A stretch of 58,830 nucleotides of DNA, filler included, from Dugesia japonica (lineage: Eukaryota): NCBI GenBank assembly GCA_001938525.1. It is 5 parts of 5 records of this genome, joined end to end, with 100 filler letters (N's around TTAATTAATTAA, not from the genome) between each part and the next. Parts side by side here need not be neighbours in the genome. Positions count along the whole stretch, not along the records: positions 10,205 to 27,971 come from MQRL01595632.1; 4 more parts are not named here. The stretch is one strand, 5' to 3'. A model generated the notes under the pieces. That model was given only the letters and a program-made list of their open reading frames with translations, searched no databases and had not been told where the DNA came from. The position numbers and the translations under genes are program-made. Below are positions 17,978-58,830 of the stretch, piece by piece. Position 1 is the stretch's first letter, and every line of letters begins with the position of its first letter.

Positions 17978-20900
17978 ATGGAACCAACAACATATCAATG
18001 TATCAAATGTAATAAAAGATTTTTAAGTAGATCGGGTTTTGTAACCCAAATGAAAACATGTGGTAAAAAAAATTATAAATTTGTGTGTCGAAAATGTAAG
18101 GATCGATTTAAAACACAACAGGCGCTAAATCATCATTTAAATTTAAATGTTTGTGTGCCACTATATTGCATCGCATGTAAAAAAAAAATTACCAATCAAA
18201 CAAGTGCGAAAAAACACTATCAAAAAAGATCACATAGAATAATTGAAGAGGATCTTACAGTTGATTTATTTGATGAACTTCCTGGAGAAAGAGTAGATGA
18301 AAAAATTATTACAAAATTGTTTATTGGTCCCGATTATGCTGATTTTATTATTTATTATTTAGATGATTGTGGAATTGAATTAAAAAAATTTATTGATGTT
18401 ATAAAAAGTACAGAATTTTATTATCAAGATGAGATTGAAAAAATTATTACAAAATATTTTAAATTTGGAAAAATATTTCATGTTAATGTTTCGGTGGAGA
18501 CAAAATATTCAAAAAATACAAATAATGTCAAAGAGGAAAGAAATTATAGATCTAATTCCTCCAATAAAAGAATAACAGTAGAAGAAAAAATTCCTGAGAT
18601 CACCCAAACACTATTAACAGATTTATTAACACAAATTAATGGGGATAAAAGTGAAAGCAGTTGGACATTAGATTATGTGGTTTATTATAAAATAAGACTT
18701 GGTCTTTATAAATCAAGGGCGGGCGGAACATATGTAAAATTACCATTTATTAAAAGAGGAATTATCAACATTGAAAACAAGGATAACAAATGTTTTCTCT
18801 ATTCAATTCTAGCACAAATATACATATGAACACCCAACACGAGTAAGCCACTATAAAAAACATTTAAATGAATTTGATTTAACAGGTGAAAATTTTCCAG
18901 TGGCAAATAAAAATATAAAAACATTTGAAAAAAATAATAATTGACAAATTAATGTTTTTGAGATTGAAAACCCAAATAAAATTCCAGAATCAACTCACAT
19001 TTCTCATTTTCTTTCTAAACCACCACAAAATGAAAATAAATGTAATTTCATTAAAATAAGATAAGGCTTCGATCAAAACAAAACAGGAAGCCTTATCTTA
19101 TTTTAATGAAATCTCAAATCCGATCAATGGTTAAGTCCAACAATTATTCTCACAATAATTGTAATTATAAATGTAATTTGTTACTTTATAAAAATTTCTT
19201 TGTGCTATGTAAAAACTTAAATACATATATTAGTCGACACGGAATGGAAAATTATTTATGTATAAATTGTATGAATGCATATTCCTCACAAGAAATAGTT
19301 GATAAACATCAAGAAAAGTGTGTTCATCAAAAACCAACAAAAATTAAATTTGAAAAAAAAAGAATTTCATGAGTTTTCAGATTTTAATTTTATGATAAAA
19401 CTTCCATTTGTTGTATATGGTGATTTTGATGCATGGACTGACATAAATAATAATAAGCAAAAACCAATTTCACTCGGCATTTATCTTGTAAGTAATCAAA
19501 AGCAATTAATAAAAACTGAATATATAAAATTCACAGGTGAAAATGTGATAAAAAAATTTTTTAGTATACCTAGAAAATTTAAATGAAAAAGTAGATGAGC
19601 TTATGGGGACAAATTTTATTAAACAACAACCAAGGATTTTAAATGATGAATGTTTTTACTGTAAGAAAACACTTGGGGAAAATCCAGAAGAAGTTTATAA
19701 CTTTTTTAGTGGAGAATTTATTGGACCAGCACATGAATTTTGTAATGAAAAATATAAAAAAATTAATAAAAATTTCTTTGTTCCATTCTACTTTCATAAC
19801 GCATCTGGTTATGATAATAATTTATTTTTTCGAGAACTTTTAGAAAAACACCAAGATGATATAAAAGGAATTATACCACACACAGACGAAGAATATATTT
19901 CATTTTCCTTTAAAAGAATTAGGTTTCTTGATTCATATAGAATGTGCGCCCCAGGTACATCAATTGAAAAAATAGGTGAAATTTTAAATAAAAATGATAA
20001 ATACCCACATTTAAAATTATTCAATTTAACAGCAAAAAAAATTGCATTTCCTTACGAATATTTAAAAGGAAATACTGTGGAAGAAGTTGAGCAATTATTA
20101 AAAAGTAATAAAATACCCACAAAGGAAGATTTTTTCAGCGCATTAAAACAAAAACATATAACTTTCAGAGAATATAAGAAATTTTTAAAAGAATTTTCTT
20201 AATTAAAAAATATGTGGGAACACAAGCTTCATTATTTAAAACTCGACGTTTTAATTCTTGTAGATTTTATGGAAAATCTTCGAGAAATTTGTATGAATTA
20301 TTACGAAATCGATCCATGTTATTGTTTCTCAGCTCCANNNNNNNNNNNNNNNNNNNNNATGAAATTTACAGGAGTAAAGTTAAGATATCCAAAACAAAAA
20401 AGTTATGAGTATTGTTTAAAAAATCAGCGAGGAAGTCGTGGTGGTGTATCCGCTGTTACGGGTGAAAGACAAGTTTTCCCATTTAATAAAAATATACTAA
20501 AGAGAAAATTTACTAAAGCACAAAAAGAAGATCTCTTAAAAATATTATAACGAGGAGAAGAAATTCCAAATAAATTTTTCGAGGAAACATTTTTAAAATA
20601 TTTGGATCAAAATTCTTTATATGCGGCATGTATGACAAAACCTCTTCCTACAGGGGATTATATTGAATGTGAGGATTTAACATATGAAAAAGCAACAGAT
20701 GAGTATAATTTCCTCTATGAGGTGGATTTAGATTATCCTCCTGAAATACACGAGAAAACAAGGTATTTTCCTCTTGCACCAGAGAAGTTAAATATTCAAA
20801 ATGAAATGTTACCTCCATATCAAGCCGATTTTCATAAAAAACTTCCACAGGATAATACAAAATTAACATTAAATCAATTTGATAAAAAAAATTATATAAT

Positions 20901-21904
20901 TCAAGGAAGCACTTTAGATTTATATCTTAAACTTGGAATGTTGTTGAAAAAAATTGTAAATATAAAATTAAAATTAAATATAAAATATAAATATAAAAAT
21001 TGTAAATATATATTGTAAATATAAAGTTCCAACAAGACCATGGTTGAGAGATAATATTCTCTTTAATATTGAAAAAAGAAATGGAGATGAGTTGGGTGAT
21101 TATTTTTTCAAGCTTTTAAATAATTCATTTTATGGAAAAAGTCTTGAAGATGTTTTTAAAAGACGGATTATTGAATTTGTTACATGTAATAAAGATTTTA
21201 AAAGAGTTTCAGCAAAATTATCATTTAGATATTTTAAAATATTTTCAAGAAAATTAGCAGCAATGCACATGCAAAAAAGTAATATTAAATATAATATATT
21301 TCTAATGATTGGTTTTGCTATTTTAGAATATGCGAAAGAGTTAATGTATAATTTTATATATAATCAAATGCAACCAATGATTGGAATAGAAAATTATAAA
21401 ATTCACTACACAGACACCGATTCATTATTTATAGAAATAATCGGGCAAGAAATTTTGGACAAGTTGTCAACATTATTTGGTAAAGAAATCTTTCAAATGA
21501 AAGATGAAATGCCAAACGCTGAAATTACACATGCAAATTTTATAAGGGCAAAATGTTATGCTTTTAATTATGTAGTAAATCTTTTAACTGAGTATTACAA
21601 TAGACACAAGGGTGGATCAAAATCCAACGACATACAAATGAAAGAGTATGACAAAATTTAAGAAAATGCCCAAGAAGTGATTTCTGGAATGAATTATACT
21701 TTAAAATCAAATAAGCATGAAATAGAATTAACTTCTCAAACAAAAATAATAATGAGTGCCTATAATGATAAAGTTTTGATTGAAATAAATGGAATTATAA
21801 CTTGGCCACATGGAAATCAATTTTATTGTGAGAGATGCGAAACATGGCACTTTAGATTAGATTTTTTATGGGAAATTTTAAATTGTCAAAATTGTGAAAA
21901 TTAA
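17978..21904 (+). pseudogene. Protein-primed family B DNA polymerase (element A), disrupted; N-terminal zinc fingers
   Basis: Three C2H2/C2HC fingers, INIENKDNKCFLYSILA, FHNASGYD, RFLDS, FPYEY, YLDQNSLY, KLLNNSFYGK, YTDTDS; split into ~8 pieces by stops, frameshifts, a 131-bp insertion and an AT expansion at ~20955-21020. Confidence 0.95.
19049..19179 (+). repeat. 131-bp hairpin repeat inserted in PolB
   Basis: 26-bp perfect inverted repeat (19045-19070 / 19087-19112); flanked by duplicated ataaatgtaattt; removal restores NENKCNLLLYKN. Confidence 0.85.
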
Positions 21905-22509: not shown

Positions 22510-23568
22510 TCATTTAATATTTTTTCTCTTTGATGAAAACTACACCTTTGAATAATAATAAGATTATTAATATAAATATTACCCGGCAAAATTAAATAAA
22601 ATTTTTTATGTCTTCCAACCCACCATTTTTTAAATTTTTACTATTTATTATTAATTTAAATTTTCCAAGTTTTTCAAAAATAAAATCTATAATTTCATCA
22701 GAACCAAAAATATTAACAATAATACTAATTCTACTTATTTTTGTATATCCACCAACAAAAATACACATTGGGGGAATATCATTTATAACTTTAAAATAAA
22801 GTTTAAAAGGATTAGTAAGAAAAAAAATCTTTTTCATTAAGATATTCCCAACCACCCTTTATTGTTACTTTTTCTAAAATTATAAATGATGATGTGAACT
22901 CGGAATAATATGGAAATCTATTTTCATTTTTTCGAAAAAATGCATTTTAAAAATCGCATATCCATCCTCATAAAGACTAATACCTTTATATAGTAAATAA
23001 TTATTAATTTATTCTTTTATTTTTTCTAATAGGTAGAGGGATTTATTTGTTTTATACATTTCTAAATCTTCATGAATTTTTTTACATATCGTGGGTGAAG
23101 AAGATTTTTTATTTTATTTATTTCCACCACCAAAAGAAATAAAAGATCATTTTGTTTTAAAATAGAAACTACTTTTTTTTAAAACTTCAACCTCATCTTT
23201 TATTTGGTAAAAAAANNNNNNNNNNNNNNNNNNNNNNNNNNNNNNNNNNNNNNNNNNNNNNNNNNNNNNNNNNNNNNNNNNNNNNNNNNNAATGGTTTTA
23301 AATTTACTTTCAATTTCTTCATCTTTGGTTTTTAATTTACTTTTTAATTTATTAAAAAATTTTGAATTTGCCACATCACGAATATTTAATTTACTGCATC
23401 AAGTTCATGTTTGGGTGGATCAATAATTTTTAAGGATTTAATAGTGTCACCAGTTTCGTTTACAAATCTTTTTTCATTGCTTGCATCTTGTATTCTTAAT
23501 TTAGCATAAAGAGCATTAATAATTTTTCTTTCATTCCTCGCCTGTGAACTGCGTCCATATGCGTTCAT
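22510..23568 (-). pseudogene. Fibre-like gene of element A, fragmented
   Basis: N-terminus NEKRFVNETGDTIKSLKIIDPPKHELDAVN matches 32843 ORF (NENKYVNETGDIISCLKIIEDPLDLHDAVN); same gene neighbours; stops and frameshifts downstream. Confidence 0.65.
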
Positions 23569-23989
23569 TTATTTCAGAAATAATTTCATCAAAAGATTTT
23601 TCTGGAAAGCTATACAGAAAATAAATACAAAGCACACCACAAATTTTTGTTTCAAAAGATTGAACCTGTTTTTCATTAAATTTTATAATGTGCTTCTCAA
23701 GATCTTCATGAAAAGGTTTTAAACCAAAAGAGTCAAAATAATGTTTATTTTTCGTAGCAACCCAATGAGCTCCTTTTTGATTTGAATTTTGATAATTAAA
23801 AATATAATTCATGTCATTTTCAAAATTTTTAGGTAACTCATTTTTCATGTNNNNNNNNNNNNNNNNNNNNNNNNNNNAAATTTCTAATGGAAATTTTAAA
23901 AAATTTGCAATGGAATAAAGATCAAAATTTTTAGTTGTTGTAATTCCAAATGTATTTAGAAAATCTAAAATTTTGGCATTATAAAGCAT
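23531..23989 (-). CDS. Adenain-like cysteine protease
   Basis: GAHWVA...YFDSFGLKP...QVQ...ICGVLCIYFL gives the His-Asp-Gln-Cys catalytic set. Confidence 0.92.
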   Translation of the reverse strand: MLYNAKILDFLNTFGITTTKNFDLYSIANFLKFPLEIXXXXXXXXXXMKNELPKNFENDMNYIFNYQNSNQKGAHWVATKNKHYFDSFGLKPFHEDLEKHIIKFNEKQVQSFETKICGVLCIYFLYSFPEKSFDEIISEINERIWTQFTGEE

Positions 23990-24625
23990 TTTCTTAAATG
24001 AATAATTAATGATATTGTTTCATTATTAAAACCAATAGGTTTTAAATTTTCATCAACAACTTCAAATCTTAGGGCATCAATTTAACTAGAAGATATTCTT
24101 GAGCAAATAGATCGTGATGGTCTTTCAATAATTTTATATCCAAAGCTTACAGTGTTTGTTGGAAATGAATATAATAAATTAGTTTCTTTATTATTTACAT
24201 AATTTCCCTTAACTAAAAGTCAAGTAATGTTAATTATATTTTTTCATCAGAATAATATTTTCCTGTGGTGTACTCTTTTGGTTTAAAACCTAAAAGTTTA
24301 CAAAAGAAAGATTTTTCATCAAATTTTAAAATTTTATTTTCGGGGATAATAAGTAAAGATTTAGCGGTTGATGTGTCTAAAGTTATTTCCATTCCAAAGT
24401 CTTTTAATTTCTCTGAAATTTCTTCAACCTTATAAGCACCAGGATGAATTTTTCTTTTTTCCCATTAAATGTAAAATATACATCTTCTCGTTCTACATTA
24501 AAAATTGTATTATAAACAGAAAGACAAATTAAAACAACTTCATATTCATCTTTCAAATCTAATGGTCTTTTTAAATTAACTTCTAATTTTGATCCTTTAC
24601 CAGTAACTAAAAACTTATGAGACAA
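23985..24625 (-). pseudogene. Minor capsid protein (penton-like), frameshifted
   Basis: PLDLKDEYEVVLICLSVYNTIFNV, LLYSFPTNTVSFGYKIIERPS, TISLIIHLRK; homologous to 31664-32342. Confidence 0.8.
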
Positions 24626-25452
24626 ATGTTTTTAAAATATTTTTGATATTTTTTATATTTCTCTTTTGAAATTAATTTTTCATTTTTTAATTTTTTACAA
24701 ACCGATTTTATTTCTGGGCCAACATTTTCATGACCAGCTTTTTTAGCAGAAAGTAAAACTACTAATTTTTCAAATAAATCTATTGGGAGTGCAGTACCTT
24801 CAATTGGTTCAATTTTTCTTCTTTTTCTTGCTTGTAATATTTTTTGTGGGAGTTTATCTTTAATCGTTTTATAATATTCACTTTTATAACCATGAGTAAT
24901 TTTTAATTTGTTGTAATAAATATCTACATCTTGCGAGTTTACATCATTAATTTCTTTTACATTTCCATGAATTAAATTCATTACTCCATCTGAATAAGGA
25001 ACAAGTGTATTTGGAATGATAAAAAAATATGGAATTTCATTTTGTTTAACTAAATATATTTCTTTTTCTTTAATTTTTATTTTTATATAAATTTTATCAC
25101 TAACAGTTTCATAATCGAGTTGAGGAAGTGTTGCTGCTGTAAAAAAATTTTTATTTACATTCATTTCTACATCTATTGAAGTAAATGGACTTTTATTTTC
25201 AAATGGATTTGTTGGTAATTTTATTTCTGGATTTGGAATTGGATTTATTGGATTTATTAGTAAACTGATTGGTTGTGCAGATTGTTGTAAAGCGGAAATT
25301 AGTGGAGATTGTGAAAAAGCAAGAGAAGAAAGAAGAATTTTAGATTGAAGAACGTTACTAGAAAAATATTCATTATATTTTTCTTCCTTTTCAATTATTT
25401 CTTTTAATTCTTTAATTCTTGATTCTAATAAAACATGAGTATTAATGACCAT
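24607..25452 (-). CDS. Conserved Polinton protein (probable core protein)
   Basis: 281 aa; C-terminal LFEKLVVLLSAKKAGH...EIKSVCKKLK shared with 30782-31651. Confidence 0.8.
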   Translation of the reverse strand: MVINTHVLLESRIKELKEIIEKEEKYNEYFSSNVLQSKILLSSLAFSQSPLISALQQSAQPISLLINPINPIPNPEIKLPTNPFENKSPFTSIDVEMNVNKNFFTAATLPQLDYETVSDKIYIKIKIKEKEIYLVKQNEIPYFFIIPNTLVPYSDGVMNLIHGNVKEINDVNSQDVDIYYNKLKITHGYKSEYYKTIKDKLPQKILQARKRRKIEPIEGTALPIDLFEKLVVLLSAKKAGHENVGPEIKSVCKKLKNEKLISKEKYKKYQKYFKNICLISF

Positions 25453-26026
25453 TTTTATAAGGTTTTAAATAAATTCCATCACCATCTTCACTATATGATT
25501 TTAAATATAATCCACCACCCTTTTTTAAATGTTTTGATGGTTTTAAATTTTGATTTTTTAAATATTTATAAATCGCTTTACCTTGTATTTCACTTATATA
25601 TTCTACTTCATTTTTATTTGTAGTAGGAATAGTAGGAGTAGTAGGAGTAGTAGAAGCAGTAGGATTTGGGATATTAGTATTAGTATTAGCATTAAGAGCA
25701 AGTTGTTTTTCTCGTTCCAACTTTTCATTTTCAAGTTTCTTGTTATAAGCCTCTCGCGATTTTGTAACGACGGATGCAACTGTACCAGTGACAGCTGCAA
25801 CTTTACCAACACCATCAAGAAAAGAAAGTAATGTAGGTATTAAAGCCAACAGTGGAATAAAAGCACCTTCTTTTTCTTGATGTTTTTTAATTTCTTCTTT
25901 TGCTTTTTTACCAATCCAATAATTTTTACCATTAATTTTAACTGTTTTACTAAGATTGGAATTTACTAATTTTCTTAATTCTTCTTCTGTAATATTCTCA
26001 CCCATTTTTCTAAGAAAAAAGATCAT
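25442..26026 (-). CDS. Adenovirus pX-like core protein precursor
   Basis: KEGAFIPLLALIPTLL...; GGGLYLKSY and GDGIYLKPY repeats; PT-rich linker; homologue of 30299-30772. Confidence 0.8.
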   Translation of the reverse strand: MIFFLRKMGENITEEELRKLVNSNLSKTVKINGKNYWIGKKAKEEIKKHQEKEGAFIPLLALIPTLLSFLDGVGKVAAVTGTVASVVTKSREAYNKKLENEKLEREKQLALNANTNTNIPNPTASTTPTTPTIPTTNKNEVEYISEIQGKAIYKYLKNQNLKPSKHLKKGGGLYLKSYSEDGDGIYLKPYKNGH

Positions 26027-26762
26027 TTGTCATTTCATTTGTTAATTGATTTAAATATAAATATGTGTATGGTCGTTTCCAAGTGTGATTTGTTTCATAG
26101 TCATAATCATTTTTATTATTAAATGCAGAAAAAAATAAATCACTATAAAAACTATCACGATCTCTTTTATTTAATCTAAAAAATATAAAACAGTTGCGGT
26201 TATTTCTTATTGAATTTTTATCAAGGTGAAAATATGTTTGGGAAATATAAATCACATTACAATTTGAATGACGACCTCGAGTGAAATAACTTTTTTGGGT
26301 TTCTTGCTTTTCATTTACCACATCATCAAAAATTACAAGATTTTTTTTATTCCTTTTTAATTTATCACAGCGTGTGATGTCTAATGGATTACTACTTAGA
26401 ATTACTTCTATTGATTGTGGTTTTTTTATTACAAATTTCTTTTGAATGAAAAAATCTACAATCTCTTTTGGAGTGTCACAGGAATTAGGAGCGATCGCTT
26501 GCTTCTTAAACATTAATAAAATTTCTTCTTTTGTTAATCCATTTAAAAATCCCTCTTTTAATAATTGCACTTCAAATTGTTTAATTGTAGTTGAATAAAT
26601 TAATAGATTATTATAATCAAGAAAACCGGGTGTAAGTAACATTTGTGTCAAGAGAAAATTTTTTCCACATCCAGAAGACCCAATTATCAACAATCGAAAA
26701 TTACTAGGAAAAAGTTTATTTTTAAAAATTACCTGGTCTTTTTTCCAAACAAAATTACTCAT
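26010..26762 (-). CDS. A32/FtsK-like DNA packaging ATPase
   Basis: GSSGCGKN, LVIFDD, FTRGRH, YISQ; start set at MSNFVW by alignment with element B (the upstream ATG overlaps the integrase). Confidence 0.93.
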   Translation of the reverse strand: MSNFVWKKDQVIFKNKLFPSNFRLLIIGSSGCGKNFLLTQMLLTPGFLDYNNLLIYSTTIKQFEVQLLKEGFLNGLTKEEILLMFKKQAIAPNSCDTPKEIVDFFIQKKFVIKKPQSIEVILSSNPLDITRCDKLKRNKKNLVIFDDVVNEKQETQKSYFTRGRHSNCNVIYISQTYFHLDKNSIRNNRNCFIFFRLNKRDRDSFYSDLFFSAFNNKNDYDYETNHTWKRPYTYLYLNQLTNEMTNDLFS

Positions 26763-26769
26763 CCTTTTT

Positions 26770-27971
26770 TTATAGAGAGGTTTTTTGTAACTCATTCTCA
26801 TAAAATCTTCCAAGAATTCTTTTCCCATTAAAATCTAAAATTTGAAATGTTGGTGGAATTGTTGTATAAATTTTTGTCACAGTATAAATTTTAACAGTCC
26901 ATTTAAATCTATATGGTTTTGCAAATGTTTTTTTAGTAAGAAATACTCTAACGCAATCTCCTATTTTTAATTTTGGTTTTTTATATATTTTATTTTGAAC
27001 TTGTTCTTTTGTTTTACCAGTTTTATATGCTTCTGTTTGAGTTGTTCCAATTGAAGAATGAATTGTGTTGTTGTAGTCATCTACTATTTTCTGTAATAAC
27101 TCAGGGGTGATTTGTTGATTTCCAACGGCAGTAAAATGTTTAAAGAGCTTCTTTTTAAATGTTCTATTAAATCTTTTAGTCTATTAAATCCCTCATTAAA
27201 AGTAGAATAACGGTTAATATTATTTTCTTCACAAAAATCAGTAAATGATGAATTGTAAAATTCTTTATCTTTATCAACCCATAAATTATTTGGTGTTCGA
27301 ATATTTTTATCTAGAATTTCTTCAAATGCATCAGCAACCACTGGACCGGTTTTATTTTTACAAAGTTCAACAAAAGCAAATCTTGAATAAAGATCAATCA
27401 CAGTTAGTATTACTCGTTTATTATGAAATGTTAAATCTGCTGACCAAGTTTCATCGGGTTCACTTACTGTTACTTTTAGAAATTTTCTCGGTTTTTTATA
27501 ATCGCGATGAAGCTTATCAGCCATTTCATTCGTTTCTGTCTCACTCGTTTGTCCTTTATGGTTCACTTCGTTCGTATTTTCTTCTAATTTTTTTATTTGC
27601 TTTAATTTACTCTGTCCTCGTAGACTTTGACCGATCATTAATTTTCCCTTCATTGCTAATTTTACGAGCATGCCTTGAAATCTTTCAGCTAATGTAGGAT
27701 CTTCAATTTCATTAATATCATGAATTAAATGTAAATCTGCAACGTGTTGATCTTTAAGATCTTTTGAATAATAAGCAAGATCGTGTTTCAGTGCTGCTGT
27801 GTCAATTCGATTAACTGGTTCTTCTCCTGGTAATGGGTTATTATTTTCATCAAGTCTAATATCTAATCGAGTTCCCGGTCCTGTATAATTATGTCCTAAT
27901 AAATGTCGTTCACCCGGATATTTTTCCCAAGTAATTGGTTTTAAAATATTACTAACAAAACTTGATTTTTG
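26770..27971 (-). pseudogene. PLA2-integrase fusion, 5'-truncated, one frameshift near 27185
   Basis: Manual translation is open from 27971: GHNYTGPGT...PVNRIDTAALKHDLAY, then in frame WSADL...VIDLYSR...WVD; after the frameshift IERFNRT...GRFYENELQKTSL*. Confidence 0.9.
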
Positions 27972-28015
27972 NNNNNNNNNNNNNNNNNNNNNNNNNNNNN
28001 NNNNNNNNNNNNNNN

Positions 28016-28027
28016 TTAATTAATTAA
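28016..28027. other. Artificial contig linker
   Basis: N-TTAATTAATTAA-N separating elements A and B. Confidence 0.95.
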
Positions 28028-28072
28028 NNNNNNNNNNNNNNNNNNNNNNNNNNNNNNNNNNNNNNNNNNNNT

Positions 28073-32439: not shown

Positions 32440-32850
32440 ATGTATAATTTATTAGACTTTTTAAAAACATTTGGAATTAACACAACTACAAATTTTGATT
32501 TATATTCAATTGCTAACTTTTTAGAATTACCTTTAGATATTTATATGAAAAATGAAATCCCTGACAAATTAGATAATAATATTATTTTTAATTATCAAAA
32601 TGAAAATCAAAATGGAACACATTGGACATGTTACAGTAATAATTATTATTTTGATTCTTTTGGTTTAAAACCTTTAGATAAAATATCTGAACATGTAAAA
32701 CTTTATAATGAAATTCAAGTTCAACATTATGGAACTAAAATATGTGGTGTATTATGTATTTACTTTTTATATTCTATTCAACATGAAACATTTGATAATA
32801 TTATATCTGAGATGTTAACACTTTATAATTCATTATTAGAAAATGAATAA
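32440..32850 (+). CDS. Adenain-like cysteine protease
   Basis: GTHWTC...YFDSFGLKP...QVQ...ICGVLCIYFL; start at MYNLLDF by alignment to element A. Confidence 0.92.
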   Translation: MYNLLDFLKTFGINTTTNFDLYSIANFLELPLDIYMKNEIPDKLDNNIIFNYQNENQNGTHWTCYSNNYYFDSFGLKPLDKISEHVKLYNEIQVQHYGTKICGVLCIYFLYSIQHETFDNIISEMLTLYNSLLENE

Positions 32851-35160
32851 GTTTGGTGAAAGTTTAAATATATTAAATACTACACAAATATTAAAAAAGG
32901 TAGATGCTAAATTTAGAACTACAGATGCAACAAATGAAAATAAATATGTAAATGAAACAGGTGACATAATTTCATGTTTAAAAATAATTGAAGATCCTTT
33001 AGACCTCCATGATGCAGTTAATTTAAAATATATTAAAACTCTAGAAGATAAATTAAAGACTCATGAATTAGTTTTTACAAAATTACTAAAACTAGACAAA
33101 ACTGAAATTAACAAATTATATTTAACATATAAAGCTGATCGTTTAAATAATCCAGTGTTAAATGATAAAATTAAAAATCTTACAAATAAATGTTCAGTAA
33201 CGAAATATACAGATATTACAACTGAAATCTCAAGATTAATATCTGAAATATTTCCATTAAAAAAATGTGATCTAATTGATAAATTTAAAACTATAACTCG
33301 AAATGATCTAAATAAAAAATTAACTAAAGATGTTAACATGTTACATGATAAACTTTATAATTTACATGATAATATAACTAAGAAAACATTTGATGAAAAT
33401 ATGAATCTTATTAATATACTTAAATCAGAAGTGGAAAAGTTTAATCTAAATATGAATATTATAAAAAATGAAATTAAAAAAATAAAACCTAAATTACACA
33501 AAATACAAATTAAGAGAATTAATGAATTATATGAAAACTATAAAGAAACACTTGATATAAAAAATATAAAATATTTCATTGATAATTATTTACAGTATCA
33601 TAATAATGATAATTTTTTTGAATATGATTATTATATATTTGAATTTGTTTATAGGGGGGATTTTATTCCATATATTAATATTAATGATAAAACTACTTAT
33701 ATAGAGAATATAGAATTTGAAAGAGGTAATTTTTTTTATAAAAATTCAGATTTTTTTTATAATGAAAAAAACTTTAGTATTTTTTTATATACAAAGATAA
33801 ATGATGAAGTTTTTATAAAGTTATATGTAACTCTTTCTTATAACTTTTCTATTAAAATTAATAATATCAGAAAGACATTTAAAAAAGATAGTAATGAAAA
33901 TAAAGTCATTAATGATAGCTCTGAATTCACGAAAGATAAAAATATAAATTATATTGAAATTGTTTTCTTTAAAGGAACTGGATTTAGGAATTCAATTATT
34001 ATTCCAAAAAAAGATTATTATTTTAGTAAAATGAATAATTTGTTTAAAGATATAAAAAAAGAACTTCATAAATTAGATTTTGATAAATTTAATGGTCTAT
34101 TAAAAAAATATAAAGAAAAATTTGAATATGATACATTTAAAGCTTTTTTTAAATTGTGTGATATTTTTTTTTTTATAAAAAAAATGAAAACCCCGATATA
34201 TTATTTAAAATTAAATGGTATCAAGAAGCTTTTCTTGTAATTCCTTATTTTAGTTATAATGATAAATATATTTACAAATTTGATTTAAAAAGAAAGAAAA
34301 GTAATGTTATAAATATTGCTTTACATACCATAATTAAAAGAAGAGTCAGTATAAATATAGATGGCGCCTGTAGGATAGAAAAATTTACATATACCATTAA
34401 AATAAATATTATTGCTGTAGCATTTTTATGTATTCCAAAAAAAATCACTATGGCTGACTATGTAGATACTATATATAACACTTATATAAATAATGGTAAT
34501 AAATTTAACATTTATAGAGAAACTGAAGAAAAAAATATAAAATATATTGAAATGGTTTTTCCAGAAGAAGTTGAGATAATAAATTTAAATATTAAATTTG
34601 CTGAATATAAAATTCCAGATGAATTAAATAAAGAATATGAAAGAATAAAACCAAAACTTCACAGGATTCAAATAATAAGAATTGATCTTTTAATAAAAAC
34701 TTATTCTGAAAATGAGAATGAGTTCGTTCTTAAAAATATAAAAGATTTAATTGATAATTACTTACCATTTAAAAATGAAAAAGTTTCTAATTTGTTTCAT
34801 CTAATTATCACAGATGAAAATCTTCCGTGTTATTATATTAATGAAAAAGTTGAAAGTATAAATTTTAAAAGAAATGGTGTAATAAATAAAGATTATATAC
34901 TTCCATATTTTTATCTTAAAGAACCATTTATTATTTCTATAAAAACATATTTACCATATAAAAATATATATATTTTAATAACATGTCACACTGGTGATTT
35001 TAAATATAGTATTAAAATAAATAACACTTTACATGAATATGTTGATAAAACATCTCAGTTTTTAAAATCATTTAGTGGAAATATAAACTTTATAGAAATA
35101 ACATTTCCTAAAGGAATTCTTCTTTATAAAATTTTAATTTTAGATAAAATTTCTACATAG
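32843..35160 (+). CDS. Fibre-like protein with three repeated domains; one -1 frameshift at ~34170
   Basis: ORFs 32843-34240 and 34450-35160 join because the second frame is open back to ~34175; repeated KPKLH.IQI.RI...IDNYL...SIKINN...NINYIEI.F.KG domains. Confidence 0.7.
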
Positions 35161-35863: not shown

Positions 35864-35906
35864 CAAAAAAAGGTTAATAGGATTAAATTAATTCTTTATA
35901 AAAAAG

Positions 35907-36488
35907 ATGTCATCAACAAGTGAAAGTAGTGAAACTGATTATGATGAAAAAAAAGAAAATTTAAGAAATAATAAATCATATTATAATTTATTTAATCAAG
36001 TTAAAAAACTATTTATAACAAAAGAAAAAAAAGATGAAATTTTACATATTAAATTAAATAATGGAAATTTAATATTTAAAAGTAAACCATTAAAAGAAGA
36101 TTTGTTATATTTAAAACAAATAGGAAATGAAAATAAAAAAGAAAGAAAAAATAAAAAAGAAATTAGAAAAAAAATACGTAAGTTAAAAAGAGAGAATAAA
36201 GATATTAAATTTATTACAAAAGTTTTTTATCCTAATTCTGAAGGCTTAAGAAATTATTTTGAAAATGAAAAATGTAATCATAATACTAATAATTTATTTA
36301 AAATAAATATAGGTGAAACATTTTTCATTTGTTGTAAAAATTGTAAACTTAATTTTGAAAATATATTACGTGAAAAATTTCCTAAACTTTATATTAGTCT
36401 TAATGAATATGTTAAAAATAAAGAAATAGAAATGAAGATTTTAAATAATGAAATACTTTGTATATTTGATGAAGAAACATCTGAAGAT

Positions 36489-36521
<33 letters not shown>

Positions 36522-37322
36522 CAAAATAAAGAAATACAAAATAAAATACAAATTAAAATACAAAATAAAGAAATAGAAAATAAAATACAAAATAAAGAAA
36601 TAGAAAATAAAATAGAAAATAATAAAATACAAAATAAAGAAGAAAATAATACATCTGAAGATGAAATATCTGAAATTAAATTAGATTCTATAAAAGAAAC
36701 AACTGATTATGATACATCTCAAGATAAAAATGTTTCAACTGAAGATGAAATATATGCTGATAAAATATTAATTAAATATAAACGTTTAATAAAATATTCT
36801 CGAACAGATGAAAAATTTTATATTAAATTTTATAAATCACTAGTAAATAATATTAGTAAGGAATCATTTAATATTTATGATTCATTAATGATACCAGAAC
36901 AAAAACTTGAAGGTGAAGATGAAACAGTAGAAAATTTAACTATAAATATTAAATGTTGGTATAATAATTTAAATATAGGAAAAAGAATATCATTAATAAG
37001 TATTTATAAATTAGGTTATTTATTTGAAATATTAAAAACTAAATATTCTTGTAATTTTGATATGTTAGAAGATTTACATAAAATTGGAATTAACTATAAA
37101 ATTAATTATATTAACAAAATAATAAAATTTTATAAATTTGCTTATCAATATCCAGAATTATTAAAATGTAATTGGTCATTTAGAACAATTGAACAAGAAA
37201 TAAAAAGAATTAAAATATACTTCATTGAAAATATATATGAACAACTAAAATTAAATCAAACGTTAGAAGAATATAATAATAATAGTATGTACACCATTGG
37301 TAAACCGGGGATCTTACACTAG
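35907..37322 (+). CDS. Accessory Lys/Glu/Asn-rich protein, element B only
   Basis: Intact 471-aa ORF; CNH...CCKNCK, NKEIENKIQ repeats, TSEDEI repeats, helical C-terminal domain. Confidence 0.8.
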
Positions 37323-38665: not shown

Positions 38666-38781
38666 TCATAAAGATGTTTTTTGTAATTCATTAGAATAAA
38701 ATCTACAAAGTATTTTGTTACCGTTAAGATTTGATATTCTAAATGTTATAGGTGATTCATGAAATATTTCAGTAATTATAT
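38666..38781 (-). CDS. Integrase C-terminus (element B), truncated
   Basis: IITEIFHESPITFRISNLNGNKILCRFYSNELQKTSL*, matching the element A integrase tail. Confidence 0.85.
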
Positions 38782-38881: not shown

Positions 38882-40550
38882 TATCTAGGCTACTAAGAAA
38901 ATTCATCCAAGTCTGAAATTGCGGAGTAATTGGCTTGTTTGTCTTTTTCATAAATTCTATCGCCTTGTGATCTGTTCTCATGAAAAATCTTTTTCCATAC
39001 AAATAATGTTTAAATGGTTACAAAAATAGTAATTAACCAATAATCCTTGACTTGTTATACAATATCCTTTTTCATGAGCTGACATTGCATGTGATCCATA
39101 TGCAATGACCTTTTCATCTATTTGCGATAAACTTGCTTCGATGGCATCAAAACTCGCATCTGTATCTAGTACAAACATCTTTTTGATATCTGGAAAACTC
39201 AATATTGGTGATTCTGATAATGCCTCTTTCATCTCATTAAAAGCTTTGTCACAGCTTTCAGACCACAAGTTTTGTATTATTACTTCCACATATATCTTCC
39301 AAACTTCTAACTTTCTTTGAGTAATCATTGATAAACCGTCTATAGTAATTGAATATTCCCAAAAAGCTTCTTAAGTTCTTCACACATTTAGGTCTTCCGA
39401 ATTTTTTATCGCTTCAATTTTTGTTGGATCAGTTTGAAATCCATTCTTGTCTATGACAAGTCAAATGACATAGCAAATTTGACTTCAGCTCCCAATAAAT
39501 GACATTCTTTTGGATTAATTCTCAATCTTGATTCTTCAATTATTTGAAATACTTGGTAAAAAAGTCTATAGTATTGCTCTAAATTTTCTGAAAATATCAA
39601 TATATCATCCATGTATACCATCGTTCCACTCAATCTTCCTAAAAATTTTGTCATTTATTCTTAAAACGTTCCAGGTGCTGCAGCTATATGCAAAGGCATT
39701 CTTGTGAAACAATACATTCCATTTTTCGTCGAAACTGCTGTTGATAATTTCATGTTACTAGAAGAAAAATGTTTTCGAAAAATTTTATTTTTGAAAAATA
39801 ATTCATATCGAATTTTGCATCGATTGATATAAATTTCTCGATAAAAAATTTATTGTAAACTTTTTCTTTTACATCATTGTACTCATCTGCTCGTTTAACT
39901 TTGTTTCTTTTATTTATATGATTATTTATACTACTTCTACTATAACTAACAATACTGAGATTTTTTAATGATACTTTATTCAACGCTCTGACAATCTCGA
40001 CTTCGGTTGGAGCTTGGCCCTTTGGGTATTCATCTTGATAAATATTTGATCCTTCATTACAATAGTGGCTTTTGTTTTCTCTACATGCACTCTTTTTTAT
40101 CATTTTCGTCAATTGAATTAACGTGACTTCCATTCCTTCTTAGTAATTATTCGTATTATTTGAATAATATCTTTGTTTGCCATTTCTGAATACCTTTCTG
40201 GTCTGTTCACTTTTATTCTGATAACTAAACTGTCTGTTCATAGTTATGTAACAATCCTTTGTGTGGTGTAATTTCTTGTTGCACCTTGAACAACTAACTT
40301 TGGTGCAGTCTTTTCTTAAGTGTTGTTCAGATCCACAAGCATAGTACTTTTTTTCATTCTTGGCAATTTCTGCTTACATGACCTATTTTGTTACAGGTCC
40401 AACACGTGATTTCTCGTCTTTTCTTGTTTCTGTTCTGTTGTATTTCTTCGTTATGATTTGTGTTAAAATTTCTTTGTTCTGGTGTGAGAAATCTTTTTTT
40501 GGAACTCATAAAGCATGACATATCGTAAGTGTTGTCTTCTGGTAGCCATT
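38882..40550 (-). mobile_element. Degenerate Ty3/Gypsy retrotransposon (gag knuckles, RT, RNase H)
   Basis: Decayed zinc knuckles at ~40300-40405, FTRMP, VYMDDILIFS, PILSFPD...VLDTDAS...VIAYGS; many stops. Confidence 0.9.
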
Positions 40551-47335: not shown

Positions 47336-49390
47336 NNNNNNNNNNNNNNNNNNNNNNNNNNNNNNNNNNNNNNNNNNNNTAAATTATTATACCCCTACTC
47401 TTAATGTTTAAAAATAAGAATATAAAAACATCATGTTACTAATTATATTCCAATATATAATCTTTGATTTATGACATAACACGTAAAATGATAACGCATC
47501 TTCTATACATTCATTACCAAACTTGTCGAAATAATCCGTTAGAAAAATAAAATAAAAATAAAAATTATTGAGTGGCAAAGTAATTTTTTTATAACATAAT
47601 ATTTTATAATATTTTTTAAATAAAAAGTAAAAAACATGAAATGGTGGTAAATTTAATATTTAATTTAAAATGAAATGATTTTTATAATTAATATTATTTA
47701 TTTATTCTCAAAAAATAAATATTTAATGAAATAATTAAAAAAGACTTTTGTTCAAATAGTTTCATGTCATAATTATTGATGCCAAATCAATACATTTGTA
47801 TAATGTCAATAATAAATTAGTGTAATTTTTCTTTTTCTGTATTTATTAACGTTTAAAAGTAATTTATTTTATTTAATAATAATACTATTATCGAAATTTT
47901 CAGAAGAAACAACTTGTTTATCAATATAAAATTAGTTAATCAGTAGTATTTATTAAAATAAAAATGAATATCAGTCAGTATTGATTGCTAATCAAAATCA
48001 GGTTAAAGTTTGAAAAATTAAAATGGTAATCGCTTTAGATCAGATAAATAAAATATAAAATTAATGAACATAAATCAAATTTTGCAAATTACTATTATTA
48101 TTAGAATAATTATTTTTCGTGTTTATGAAGTTTAAATAAATTAAAAATCTTAGATACAAAAATAGAATTTCTTGGATATCCAATTTTTTGACAATAATCT
48201 TCTTCAGTGATTTTCTACTTCACTTTTAAAAGAGATAAATTAAATTAACAGTATCGAATATTTTAAGAATTTATTTTCACTGTAAATAATATGAAAATTA
48301 ATCAAAATGTCTTTCAGTAATTTACAAGACTTTTATTTCTTCTAAAAATGACCAAATTATATTTCAGATAAATCATAAATTGTATAAATAAATACAGAAT
48401 TCCATTGCAAAAGATATGTATTTAGTGTAACACGTTATCAACAGATAAACTATTATCTTCAAACGACATATTAAAACTCTAAGTAATGTACTTTATACCA
48501 CATACCAGTATGTATATATATACGTCGTTAAGAAGTATGGGATGACGCAAAATCGTGTTGATAATTTTTTTTAATTCCAAATAATTATTTTGCCCTTAAT
48601 TAAAGAAACTATAAAATTTTTATGGCCAGAAAAACAGACAAGCCATTTTTACATCATCCTTTACGCTATTCATGACATATTGCCTCGCAAAATCATCTAG
48701 TCTTATCATCTTACACACAGTTCACCACATCTACTCAACACTCCTTTCAGCCATCATCTCAGCATATCGTTTCAGCCCATCGTCTTACCACATCGTCGGT
48801 GCATATCATCTCAGCACACTGCTCTTCACCTTGACCCACTAAAGATGACTGAATACTTAGCTGACTTTTCAGCATGTGTATATTGAATTGGTTGATTTGA
48901 AAGAATGACTGGATTTATGCAGTGGAGGACAACTTGCACTGATATATAATAGGAATCAGATTTGAGTAGTTTATTTGTATATTTAAGACAGTTTTATCAC
49001 AATATAATAAACTCATGTTATGTTAAGAGATGTGTTTATATAATTCTGTTCGTTTTAATTTTTGACGTAAAATCGAACGGAATTTTCATATTTTATTTAA
49101 ATTAAAAATNNNNNTGACGTAAAATCGAAATTTACTTCTATATATAATTTTTTACGTCTGTTTGTATGTGGATTTGTCTACAACGCTCGAGTTATAAAGA
49201 GTAATAGAAATAATTTTAAAAAGTTTAATAGAAAAATAAAAGTTATTTCAATAATAATAATATAAAAGCTTCTATCAAAATCTTTTTGGATTTTGATAAT
49301 AATTCTAATTTTCGACTTTGTCTTCAAAGGAAAAAGTCAATTCCTGACGAAAACAAAGTCGAAAATGAGAATTATTACCGAAAACCAAAA

Positions 49391-49482
49391 AATTTGATCG
49401 AAGCTTTTATTTTAATGAATTCTGAAAAAACAATCAATGGTTACGTCCAACAATTATTCACGCAATAATTGTAATTGTAAAA
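49391..49482 (+). repeat. Diverged arm of the foldback repeat family
   Basis: tttgatcgaagc...ttttaatgaa...atcaatggttacgtccaacaattatt...caataattgtaattgtaaa. Confidence 0.75.
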
Positions 49483-56175: not shown

Positions 56176-56533
56176 ATATGACGTTACTTTGTTAGCTAAT
56201 TCGAGAAGTAGTTACCTACAACGTTGTCAATTATTGATTCACAACAATTATAAATACAGAGGCAACTTTCAAGAAAATCAATAAACAAAAATCTTGAGTA
56301 AAGAGACTTTACTTTAACTTAAAACTTAAAAGGCAAATAATATTACTCCTTCAGAGTGAATATCTCTGCGAGATTCAAAGTGATAAAAATCTTATATGGG
56401 TAAGAATACTACTGAATAGGAGAAGAGAATATATGTTCCTTAATTAAATGAATGAATTACACTTGTATTATATAAAGGAACATAGACATCATTTAGAGGA
56501 ATAAATAAATGAATATCCATAAAATAACAATTT

Positions 56534-56625
56534 AATTTGATCGAAACTATTTTTTCAATGAAATCTCAAATGCGATCAATGGTTAAATCCAACAATTATT
56601 CTCGCAATAACTGTAATTGTAAAAT
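56534..56625 (+). repeat. Arm of the foldback repeat family
   Basis: aatgaaatctcaaatgcgatcaatggttaaatccaacaattattctcgcaataactgtaattg, close to 19105-19167; weaker copies at ~46025 and ~58357. Confidence 0.8.
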
Positions 56626-58830
56626 ATTCTTCAGTTTAACGATGATTATGCTCCAGATCTAATATGCTTTATTAGCAATTAGTTTTCGAGCATTGTATCA
56701 ATAAAACAAAGTTACTCAATTAGATACGGAAGAATATTTCTCACCGTAACGATGGAGAGAAATAAAGCGGCAAGTATCATATGATTTAAAGGGCGACAAC
56801 GACAACATACATAGCAAAAAACAATGTTTTCTAAAGAATTTACTGAAATGATAAAAAGAAAAGCTCAATAGCTAAATAATGACTGACTCAGGGAGAAAGA
56901 ATTTGAAGAAAATACGGAAAAGAACAGTTTCTACCAAAAGCTTTTAGTACCTGCAAAGAATATTTAAAAAAATACTAGGTTAATGTGCCCTAGATTATTG
57001 TAGCCCTTTCAAAATCGAAAAGTATTTTATATTCTAAAGCCAGATGAATCATTTGTTTAACTCTACTTATAATGTGATCATAACAGAATGTGTTTCTTTA
57101 GTACCTGGCCGTAAATTTCAGTAGGAGTTATACACAAACAAGTTTAACATGTACGGTATCCAGTTAAAAAATATAGAAGGCACTACTTAGAAAGTTTTTG
57201 AATAAATTGATAATGTGCATTGATGCTTATTTCATTCCATTTTATTTATTGGTGATTAATTACAAGGTGATTAACAGACGAGTGATTTACTTTTGAGTGT
57301 TTAAATGTCAGATGATTAAATCCATCATGCCAGTGATTAAATGTCACCAAACCAACTTGTAATATTATGGTTTTATCTTTCTCTTTTGAATAGTGGACTT
57401 TTGTAACTAAACTTACACAGATCGTTTTATTCAAAAGAAAATACTTGTTATTAATATCTAATGTTTCTTGTTGTAAATCATCTAATCTTGCTAACATTAA
57501 TTATTGTACGTTTCTTGTTAATTCCACTTTACTTGCTTTAAAATATTCAATGTTATGATTTCGGTATTCCCTAAGTAATTTATCCAAACACTTTTCATGA
57601 TAGCCTATTGACAATTGTCGAAGCCATTCATCAAGCAATTTTTTGNCGTTTTTGCCTGAATTTTGATAAATTATTTTCGTAACTGGTACTCATATAATCA
57701 GATAAAGTATGGTTCTTCTTTTTAAAGTGATCATCACAAATTTCAAAATGTAGGCTTACATTTTCATTTCCACCACAAATAGTTGATTATTTGTGAAAAA
57801 GACCTTTTCACTTTTGAAAAATTTTCTACATATTTTACACTTGAATTTACATTGGTTTTTCACACATGTTTTTTTTGAACATGTAATCCAAGACCCGCTT
57901 TATTTTAAAAAACATTTTCATAATTATTGCACATTAGTTAAATCTTTATTAAAAAACCTAGTCTAATTATAAAAAACTTTTTGTTTTCTTCTAACGTCAG
58001 TTTCAAAACTTCTGAAATCAGCTTTGCCACTCCTAAGGTCATTGGTCAGTATGAAAAATTCTGACTGCATATTTTATGAGTGGCAAAACTAAACATTACA
58101 AATTTTAAAATGGTAGTTTTAATGGTAGGGCTCAAACGTCTTGAATTAAAAACACCATTTTATTACAACTATCAATAAACTTTTATCATGTTGGCAAAAA
58201 TGCAGGGATTCCAATGGTGTTTATTTTTAAATAAAATTTCTGTAATGAACTTAGTTATGACAGTTTAAAATTTGGTTTCAAAATATTAACTTGGAAGCAA
58301 TCAATTGTTTTGATGTTATTATTCATTACTTTTTAAATCAATATTAAACATGAAAATTTTGATCGAAGCTTGTATTTTAATGAAATCTTAAATGATAGAT
58401 GATTACGTCCAACAATTATAAAGCATAAAAACTAAAAATACATATAGGGAATCTATTTAAATTGCAGGTGTAAAAATACATAAATAAAATATTTGAATTA
58501 CAATTTACTTGAAAATTCTAAAATAACAATTTGTTTATATATATATATATATATATAATAAATAAGTTTAAGTCGATTATCATATTCAGAATAGATATTC
58601 CTCAAATCCACAAATTATTGAAGCTGTTATTCTACAATCGGATAGCGAGTCTGACAAAGACTACATTGTTTCTAGTAGAAGCATTGAAAATAAACTCAAT
58701 CGTCCTAATAGCCATTTTACAATTCGAGCGAATTTATCATCTAAGTCGAAATCAGTCACAAATGATGTTAGTTTTATATTTAATGTATTTTGTGATATTT
58801 AATATAATATAAATATTATTATTATTATTA

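Follow-up and report, generated by a model that had tools for sequence, protein, structure and literature searches.

A parvovirus-type phospholipase A2 (PLA2) and the core of a DDE integrase share one open reading frame in a Polinton copy of Dugesia japonica, and in-frame PLA2-integrase fusions of this kind are almost certainly a conserved trait. Going beyond the sequence-only reading that preceded this analysis, we find that a -1 frameshift very probably yields the same fused product in relatives with a stop codon between the two domains. The element lies in an AT-rich stretch of 58,830 nucleotides (hereafter the window), which is a string of contigs with N44-TTAATTAATTAA-N44 linkers between them.

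The frame occupies positions 27084-27971 on the minus strand and reads as a single ORF of 295 codons that holds PLA2 and the first part of the integrase together. The sequence-only reading had proposed profile searches for both domains, and in Pfam each scored above its cut-off in the one frame: PF08398 over amino acids 22-88 of the ORF (E = 1.2e-9, 38.8 bits, cut-off 23.9) and rve (PF00665) over amino acids 171-254 (E = 5e-9, 36.8 bits, cut-off 32.6). The first ATG is codon 101 (27669-27671), and the 100 codons before it are open and contain the NYTGPG and HD motifs, as had been claimed. The beginning of the ORF is lost, however: its 5' end coincides with the edge of the contig, so that the start codon lies outside the window, and the ORF start and everything upstream are missing at the scaffold linker (27972-28071).

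The PLA2 domain covers amino acids 15-116 (27624-27929, minus strand), with a predicted Ca-binding loop, NYTGPG, at amino acids 28-33 (27873-27890), D57, and the predicted catalytic residues H63-D64 (the HD pair at 27780-27785), Y67 and D79 (27735-27785). Compared with solved structures, its profile gave VP1 of AAV and other parvoviruses as top matches (E = 9e-4), which bears out the proposed identity. The structure model of this part had a pLDDT of 91, and its top fold match was the rice sPLA2 2wg7, with a score that is modest for a helical domain (Z = 7.6, rmsd 3.7, 93 aligned residues). By its GPG loop and HD dyad the PLA2 is of the parvovirus type, and enzyme activity is predicted. The domain closes with a motif conserved among homologues, K-x-x-x-G-x-(G) (27624-27644, minus strand), a candidate protease site that reads G-Q-S in the window copy. 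The linker that follows (27525-27623, minus strand) is variable in alignments with homologues; 65 amino acids separate G114 from D179 in this copy, and an in-phase A-run heptamer is present at 27588-27594, possibly by chance. The N-terminal part of the integrase core continues in the PLA2 frame (27181-27524, minus strand), with Met150 (27522-27524) five residues ahead of the conserved His at the start of the integrase, DKLH at 152-155, and D179 and D233. Its fold matches are retroviral integrase cores, and a fold search with the whole ORF gave mostly integrases and one densovirus VP1 at rank 48.

The integrase itself is interrupted. Its frame shifts near position 27180: D179 and D233 are the catalytic aspartates in the PLA2 frame, with the third acidic residue of the catalytic set out of register. 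The remaining, C-terminal part lies in an ORF of its own in another frame (26770-27180, minus strand), which is 47% identical to amino acids 322-463 of a fused homologue (P0002) and has no Pfam match to the chromodomain PF00385; close fused homologues likewise lack a chromodomain. The open run into the DDE integrase described previously thus holds for the part of the core with D179 and D233, but the range given for it as one ORF, 26770-27971, was overstated. The window copy is broken and unable to make a whole integrase.

Sister copies of the element were viewed through contigs and reads of public runs. At 85% likeness, 6128 contigs of run X1 were placed on the 2.6 kb between 25400 and 27971, indicating very many sister copies in the same organism, and most of these contigs were 90-95% alike to the window, or less. 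At position 27180 the depth of X1 was 14 (bin mean about 83,000), while 17 X1 contigs diverge from the window letters at 27176; the break near 27180 therefore belongs to few copies. A second programmed frameshift at this position was rejected because the third catalytic motif is in the same frame in 61 of 69 fused homologues, because few copies show the break, and because no canonical heptamer was seen by eye. Seven joints in the linker region, among the sister contigs listed, were read by hand: four were in frame without a stop, one was in frame with a stop, and two were out of frame. The raw RNA run X15 yielded 34 reads, 27 of them less than 90% alike and 33 lying only partly on the stretch, and is uninformative on the expression of the window copy.

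The element around the fusion is a Polinton (Maverick, adintovirus-like), present here as a broken and decayed genomic copy. On the minus strand are an A32-like packaging ATPase (26010-26834; PF04665, E = 8e-11), an ORF predicted to encode a core protein, putatively pX/cupiennin-like, that has a hydrophobic helix as well as GGGLYL and GDGIYL motifs (25442-26029), an adenain-type cysteine protease (23531-24019) and a broken penton-like gene (23989-24631). The match of the protease to PF00770 is weak and below the cut-off (E = 0.012); H-W, YFDSFG and CG motifs are visible, and it matches a related protease at 36% (E = 7e-19). Used as a scan query, the window protease gave no matches. The penton-like gene was located by a weak tblastn match (E = 2.7e-4) to an ORF of locus L077 assumed to be the penton. 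A protein-primed DNA polymerase B lies in several pieces on the plus strand (17978-21904; PF03175, E = 2.4e-5 at 20551-21015), and the polymerase of L077 matches this region by tblastn with E = 3e-63. The window contains several of the features by which Polintons are recognised: pPolB (in pieces), rve integrase (broken), A32 ATPase and adenain-type protease. Five queries for the major capsid gene, two of them Pfam-confirmed double jelly-roll (DJR) proteins, gave no tblastn match in the window at E = 0.01; the contig ends first, and L077 and L082 carry the major capsid gene upstream of PLA2, where the window contig ends. None of the 25 longest inverted repeats listed fits the element, one end of which lies beyond the contig edge. 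In the available sections of Buck et al. (2024 preprint, PMC11071296), the definition of adintoviruses includes an integrase with a C-terminal chromodomain and a PolB carrying an OTU-like domain at its N-terminus. The window element behaves like a group 2 Polinton and departs from the strict adintovirus definition in the chromodomain.

Other mobile elements were seen in the window. The next contig (28072-38781) carries, on the minus strand, a second related Polinton-like element, about 72-75% identical in DNA wherever the two share sequence; it has PolB, core-like and penton-like ORFs, protease and ATPase, as well as three long ORFs without a Pfam match (32840-34240, 34162-35160 and 35892-37322), and its last piece, reaching the edge of the contig, is a C-terminal integrase fragment near 38669-38781. 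Pfam matches to RT and RNase H mark remnants of an LTR retrotransposon at 38978-40373 (minus strand). A small MITE-like repeat family with inverted arms of about 50 nt is present at 2266-2534, 19046-19174, 49283-49481, 56531-56623 and 58353-58419, one copy sitting within the PolB region of the element.

Both Pfam domains, PLA2 and rve, were found in 69 of the 120 homologue clusters listed among 144 found, a proportion that is not a frequency since the protein rows were chosen for being fused. The PLA2 catalytic residues are nearly invariant in these 69 homologues (H and D each in 68, Y and D79 in all 69), as are G31 (68/69) and P32 (66/69) of the Ca-binding loop, while G33 is present in 60. 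The first two integrase aspartates are kept in 69/69 and 68/69. At the end of PLA2, K110 is conserved in 68, G114 in all 69 and the second glycine in 57, and the distance from G114 to D179 varies from 32 to 94 amino acids among homologues. An identical minimal short junction occurs in 10 of the 15 members listed of a cluster with 114 members (P0035).

A quick tree built from 121 integrase rows placed the window within a starred set (SH-aLRT 95) of 58 rows, all fused, most of which had been picked for being fused, and with the window row filling 39% of the columns. The fused label changes 16 times on this tree, five of the changes being forced by starred branches, and where the tree holds chromodomain-bearing integrases, in-frame forms are intermingled with -1 forms. 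No relatives were found in prokaryote genomes or in the phage collection. The PLA2-integrase fusion is standard in the clade of the window copy, a case the sequence-only reading had allowed for, but it is absent from the literature that we searched.

We also examined the reading frames at the junctions of related loci. After nine re-fetches of the same contigs had been dropped from 110 fetched loci, 101 were scored together with the window; the metagenome scan contributed the best 80 of 468, so that the proportions among junctions are not frequencies. Adjacent PLA2 and integrase genes gave 58 scorable junctions, of which 34 were in frame (33 loci and the window), 21 were in the -1 frame, two were in the +1 frame and one was in the same frame with a stop. 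Both domains were present in 19 further loci for which the junction was unscorable, the genes being unlinked or decayed or the motif missed. The sequence-only reading had asked whether sister copies keep the fusion; relatives do so in these 33 loci and in the fused clusters.

Decay does not account for the bias towards -1, because breaks inside the same domains of the same loci were split almost evenly (13 in -1 and 12 in +1, with seven in the same frame), a distribution that differs from the 21 versus 2 at the junctions (Fisher p = 0.004). Of the 21 -1 junctions, 16 had an in-phase heptamer of the type X_XXY_YYZ within the overlap, as compared to an expectation of 1.16 after shuffling; when the -1 loci were clustered at 75% identity, 11 of 15 clusters had it. 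Among the in-frame linkers of the other loci, which are longer, only 6 of 33 contained such a heptamer. The sequence AAAAAAC was in phase in 13 occurrences and off phase in two. Five -1 junctions had no canonical heptamer (L001, L002, L049, L093 and L094). In two of these loci (L093:3903-4005 and L094:1003-1024) the stop codon of PLA2 is immediately preceded by G_AAA_AAT, which may be a slip site of a non-canonical kind.

The sequences at these overlaps make it highly likely that the stop-bearing relatives produce PLA2-integrase by -1 ribosomal frameshifting at sites of the A_AAA_AAC type. A_AAA_AAC is also the gag-pro site of MMTV. Instead of the ribosome, the overlap could be bridged by splicing or by slippage of the polymerase when it transcribes the A run: runs of 7-10 A are found in several loci (L001, L055, L062, L082), and the hairpin signal is weak overall. 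Polymerase slippage should however be indifferent to phase, and the commonest site, which has just six A followed by C, is phase-locked (13 versus 2); moreover, a stem of 8-12 bp starts 5-7 nt past the slip site in five loci (L051, L074, L078, L081, L089). Slippage or splicing is accordingly an improbable route. A stimulatory RNA structure is expected 5-9 nt downstream of such a slip site. Hairpin folding there with z <= -2 was seen at 4 of 16 slip sites and in 1 of 32 controls, but the whole set did not differ from the control windows (p = 0.67), and only some loci have such a hairpin.

Another possibility is that the integrase is made alone from an internal start, at Met150 in the window or at a non-AUG codon, and that the open frame upstream is incidental. 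The position of Met150 just before the conserved His fits with this, but a methionine is present in the linker of only 4 of the 33 in-frame loci and 12 of the 69 fused proteins. Nor can the separate integrase ORFs start on an ATG of their own, because in 19 of the 21 that could be scored the first ATG lies downstream of the first catalytic Asp. Independent initiation is thus very unlikely. Integrases that are not linked to PLA2 in this way mostly have their own Met, and some have an extra N-terminal domain with an IYY.P motif. A third arrangement of PLA2 and integrase was noted in four loci (L026-L028 and L030) with stand-alone PLA2 genes, 51-60% identical to the window PLA2 and ending right past L/I-G-A-G-x; the next ORF has its own ATG and an IYY.P start, and it has an integrase match in L026, while the other three contigs end early.

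The in-frame fusions might also be accidents that arose in elements of the frameshift type, where a single base changed in the A run or the run was wrongly assembled. This is likely for some cases outside the clade of the window. In one cluster of 13 members (P0104), a Lys run is followed by a stop in seven and continues into the integrase in six, the stop and fused forms differing in the length of the run, and loci L024 and L025 are in frame beside their -1 sisters L062 and L073; the A run in the linker of the window is also in phase. Against an accidental origin, 27 of the 33 in-frame linkers are without the heptamer, many of them being short and free of A runs, multi-member clusters retain the same junction, and the -1 form occurs in none of the seven DNA loci nearest to the fused family of the window (L016, L018-L021, L034 and L057). 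In addition, an X1 contig is identical to the window over 27466-27635, although X1 is possibly the source sample. For the clade as a whole the accident reading is contradicted, and as a general explanation we give it very little credence.

The end of PLA2 is marked by Gly-x-Gly in 20 of the 21 -1 junctions and in 27 of the 34 junctions in frame. In another lineage, an adenain protease and an integrase, or integrase-chromodomain, are joined in one ORF with a Gly motif between them (L072:7070-8925, L075:3982-5957 and L100:2740-4248, all on the plus strand), and rve is also present in 9 of the 15 matches to the protease region. In L072 and L075 the protease-integrase ORF is in the -1 frame relative to a core-like ORF upstream that it overlaps, with an in-phase A_AAA_AAG or A_AAA_AAA in the overlap, which gives a layout similar to Gag-Pro-Pol. 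Two different predicted virion proteins, PLA2 and the protease, thus bear the same integrase passenger.

In retroviral Gag-Pro-Pol and LTR-retrotransposon Gag-Pol, the integrase is a C-terminal extension of a particle protein, reached by -1 frameshifting or in frame depending on the lineage. The Polinton arrangement resembles these systems in both respects, and release by a protease is predicted here too. It differs in that the element is a linear dsDNA virus-like one, with a double jelly-roll capsid in relatives and no reverse transcriptase, and in that the carrier of the integrase is a phospholipase or an adenain-type protease. On balance, we favour an explanation in which the common frame of PLA2 and the integrase core makes the integrase the tail end of a virion protein; it would be packaged together with its carrier and cut free by the protease that the element itself encodes, with relatives arriving at the same product by frameshifting. 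Relatives with the -1 frameshift would make much PLA2 and little PLA2-integrase, as with retroviral Gag and Gag-Pol, whereas the in-frame form would fix the ratio at 1:1. The PLA2 part would carry the integrase into the particle, and the Gly-x-Gly motif may be where the protease frees it. When a particle enters a cell, PLA2 would open the endosome, leaving the integrase to act on the genome brought in.

Alternatively, the fusion may be real and remain uncut, PLA2-integrase being one working protein in which PLA2 replaces a missing N-terminal domain or ferries the complex across membranes; or the coupling may merely limit the amount of integrase. It is in line with this that the fused and -1 integrases start directly at the ELH motif, without the IYY.P domain of some independently started integrases, that some linkers are very short (32 amino acids from G114 to D179), and that the second Gly is absent in 12 of the 69 homologues. 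However, the Gly motif is retained whatever the length of the linker and also precedes the integrase in the protease-integrase fusions, and a fixed 1:1 fusion leaves no down-regulation by which the amount could be limited. We consider an uncut fusion unlikely, and retain packaging followed by release as the preferred reading.

Relevant data come from mavirus, for which the sections available of Born et al. (2018, PMC6048507) describe virions that contain an rve integrase and a lipase-like protein, and a clan CE protease that cuts GG|X and GX|G (see also PMC6428243). Unlike the fused proteins studied here, the mavirus integrase MV02 and hydrolase MV13 are, in the same sections, separate products, and MV13 is an alpha/beta hydrolase rather than a PLA2. 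The fusion is thus not required for packaging, because mavirus packages its integrase without one. The Polinton PLA2 is thought to be packaged, as far as the available part of PMC4642659 goes. Together with the Gly-x-Gly motif in most relatives and the protease-integrase fusions, the mavirus data lend support to the earlier proposal of packaging and protease separation, and we think it fairly probable that the integrase is packaged through its fusion to PLA2 and then released at Gly-x-Gly. In the window copy, the G-Q-S in place of G-x-G, the position of Met150 just ahead of the integrase and the broken integrase speak against it.

The window element, which combines pPolB, rve integrase, A32 ATPase and adenain with a PLA2 of the parvovirus type, has a gene set like that of alpha adintoviruses and group 2 Mavericks that bear PLA2X. 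A pX-like domain C-terminal to the PLA2 belongs to the definition of adintovirus PLA2X. In the accessible text of Starrett et al. (2021, PMC8502044), PLA2X of alpha adintoviruses and group 2 Maverick-Polintons is a stand-alone gene, and no use is made of the terms fused, fusion or slippery; the same type of gene is called CAP in the part available of Geisler (2018, PMC5803895). In contrast to the separate PLA2X and integrase genes of alpha adintoviruses, the two share a frame in the window and the integrase is without the C-terminal chromodomain. The PLA2 of the parvovirus VP1-unique region has the GPG loop and HD dyad in common with ours, but is joined to a capsid protein instead of an integrase. 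Programmed -1 frameshifts have been predicted in adintoviruses, at Penton C-termini and between Hexon and Adenain in the available sections of the preprint by Buck et al. (PMC11071296), that is in the same virus group but not between PLA2 and integrase or protease and integrase. The PLA2-integrase fusion is likewise unmentioned in the portions at hand of PMC3671162, PMC8097293, PMC11161782, PMC12567637 and 10.64898/2026.06.19.733378. Our literature search returned no report of it, although subscription papers, Repbase entries or supplementary maps might contain one.

These results have consequences for the annotation of Polintons. They mean that many integrases have been annotated from a wrong ATG, one that follows the first catalytic Asp, and -1 overlaps at PLA2-integrase junctions should not be counted as decay when the intactness of copies is judged. 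The conserved fusion to a predicted virion protein also bears on the possible transport of the integrase together with the Polinton genome; no Maverick-Polinton virion has been observed so far, according to the part available of 10.64898/2026.06.19.733378. We regard the chances as even that Polintons have converged on the logic of retroviral Gag-Pol, in which the integrase of several lineages, rather than being an independent gene, closes a virion polyprotein as its final domain (PLA2-integrase, or core protein-protease-integrase), reached by -1 frameshifting or in frame and released at a Gly motif. Should this convergence be true, it would provide genomic evidence that Polintons package their integrase and spread as particles.
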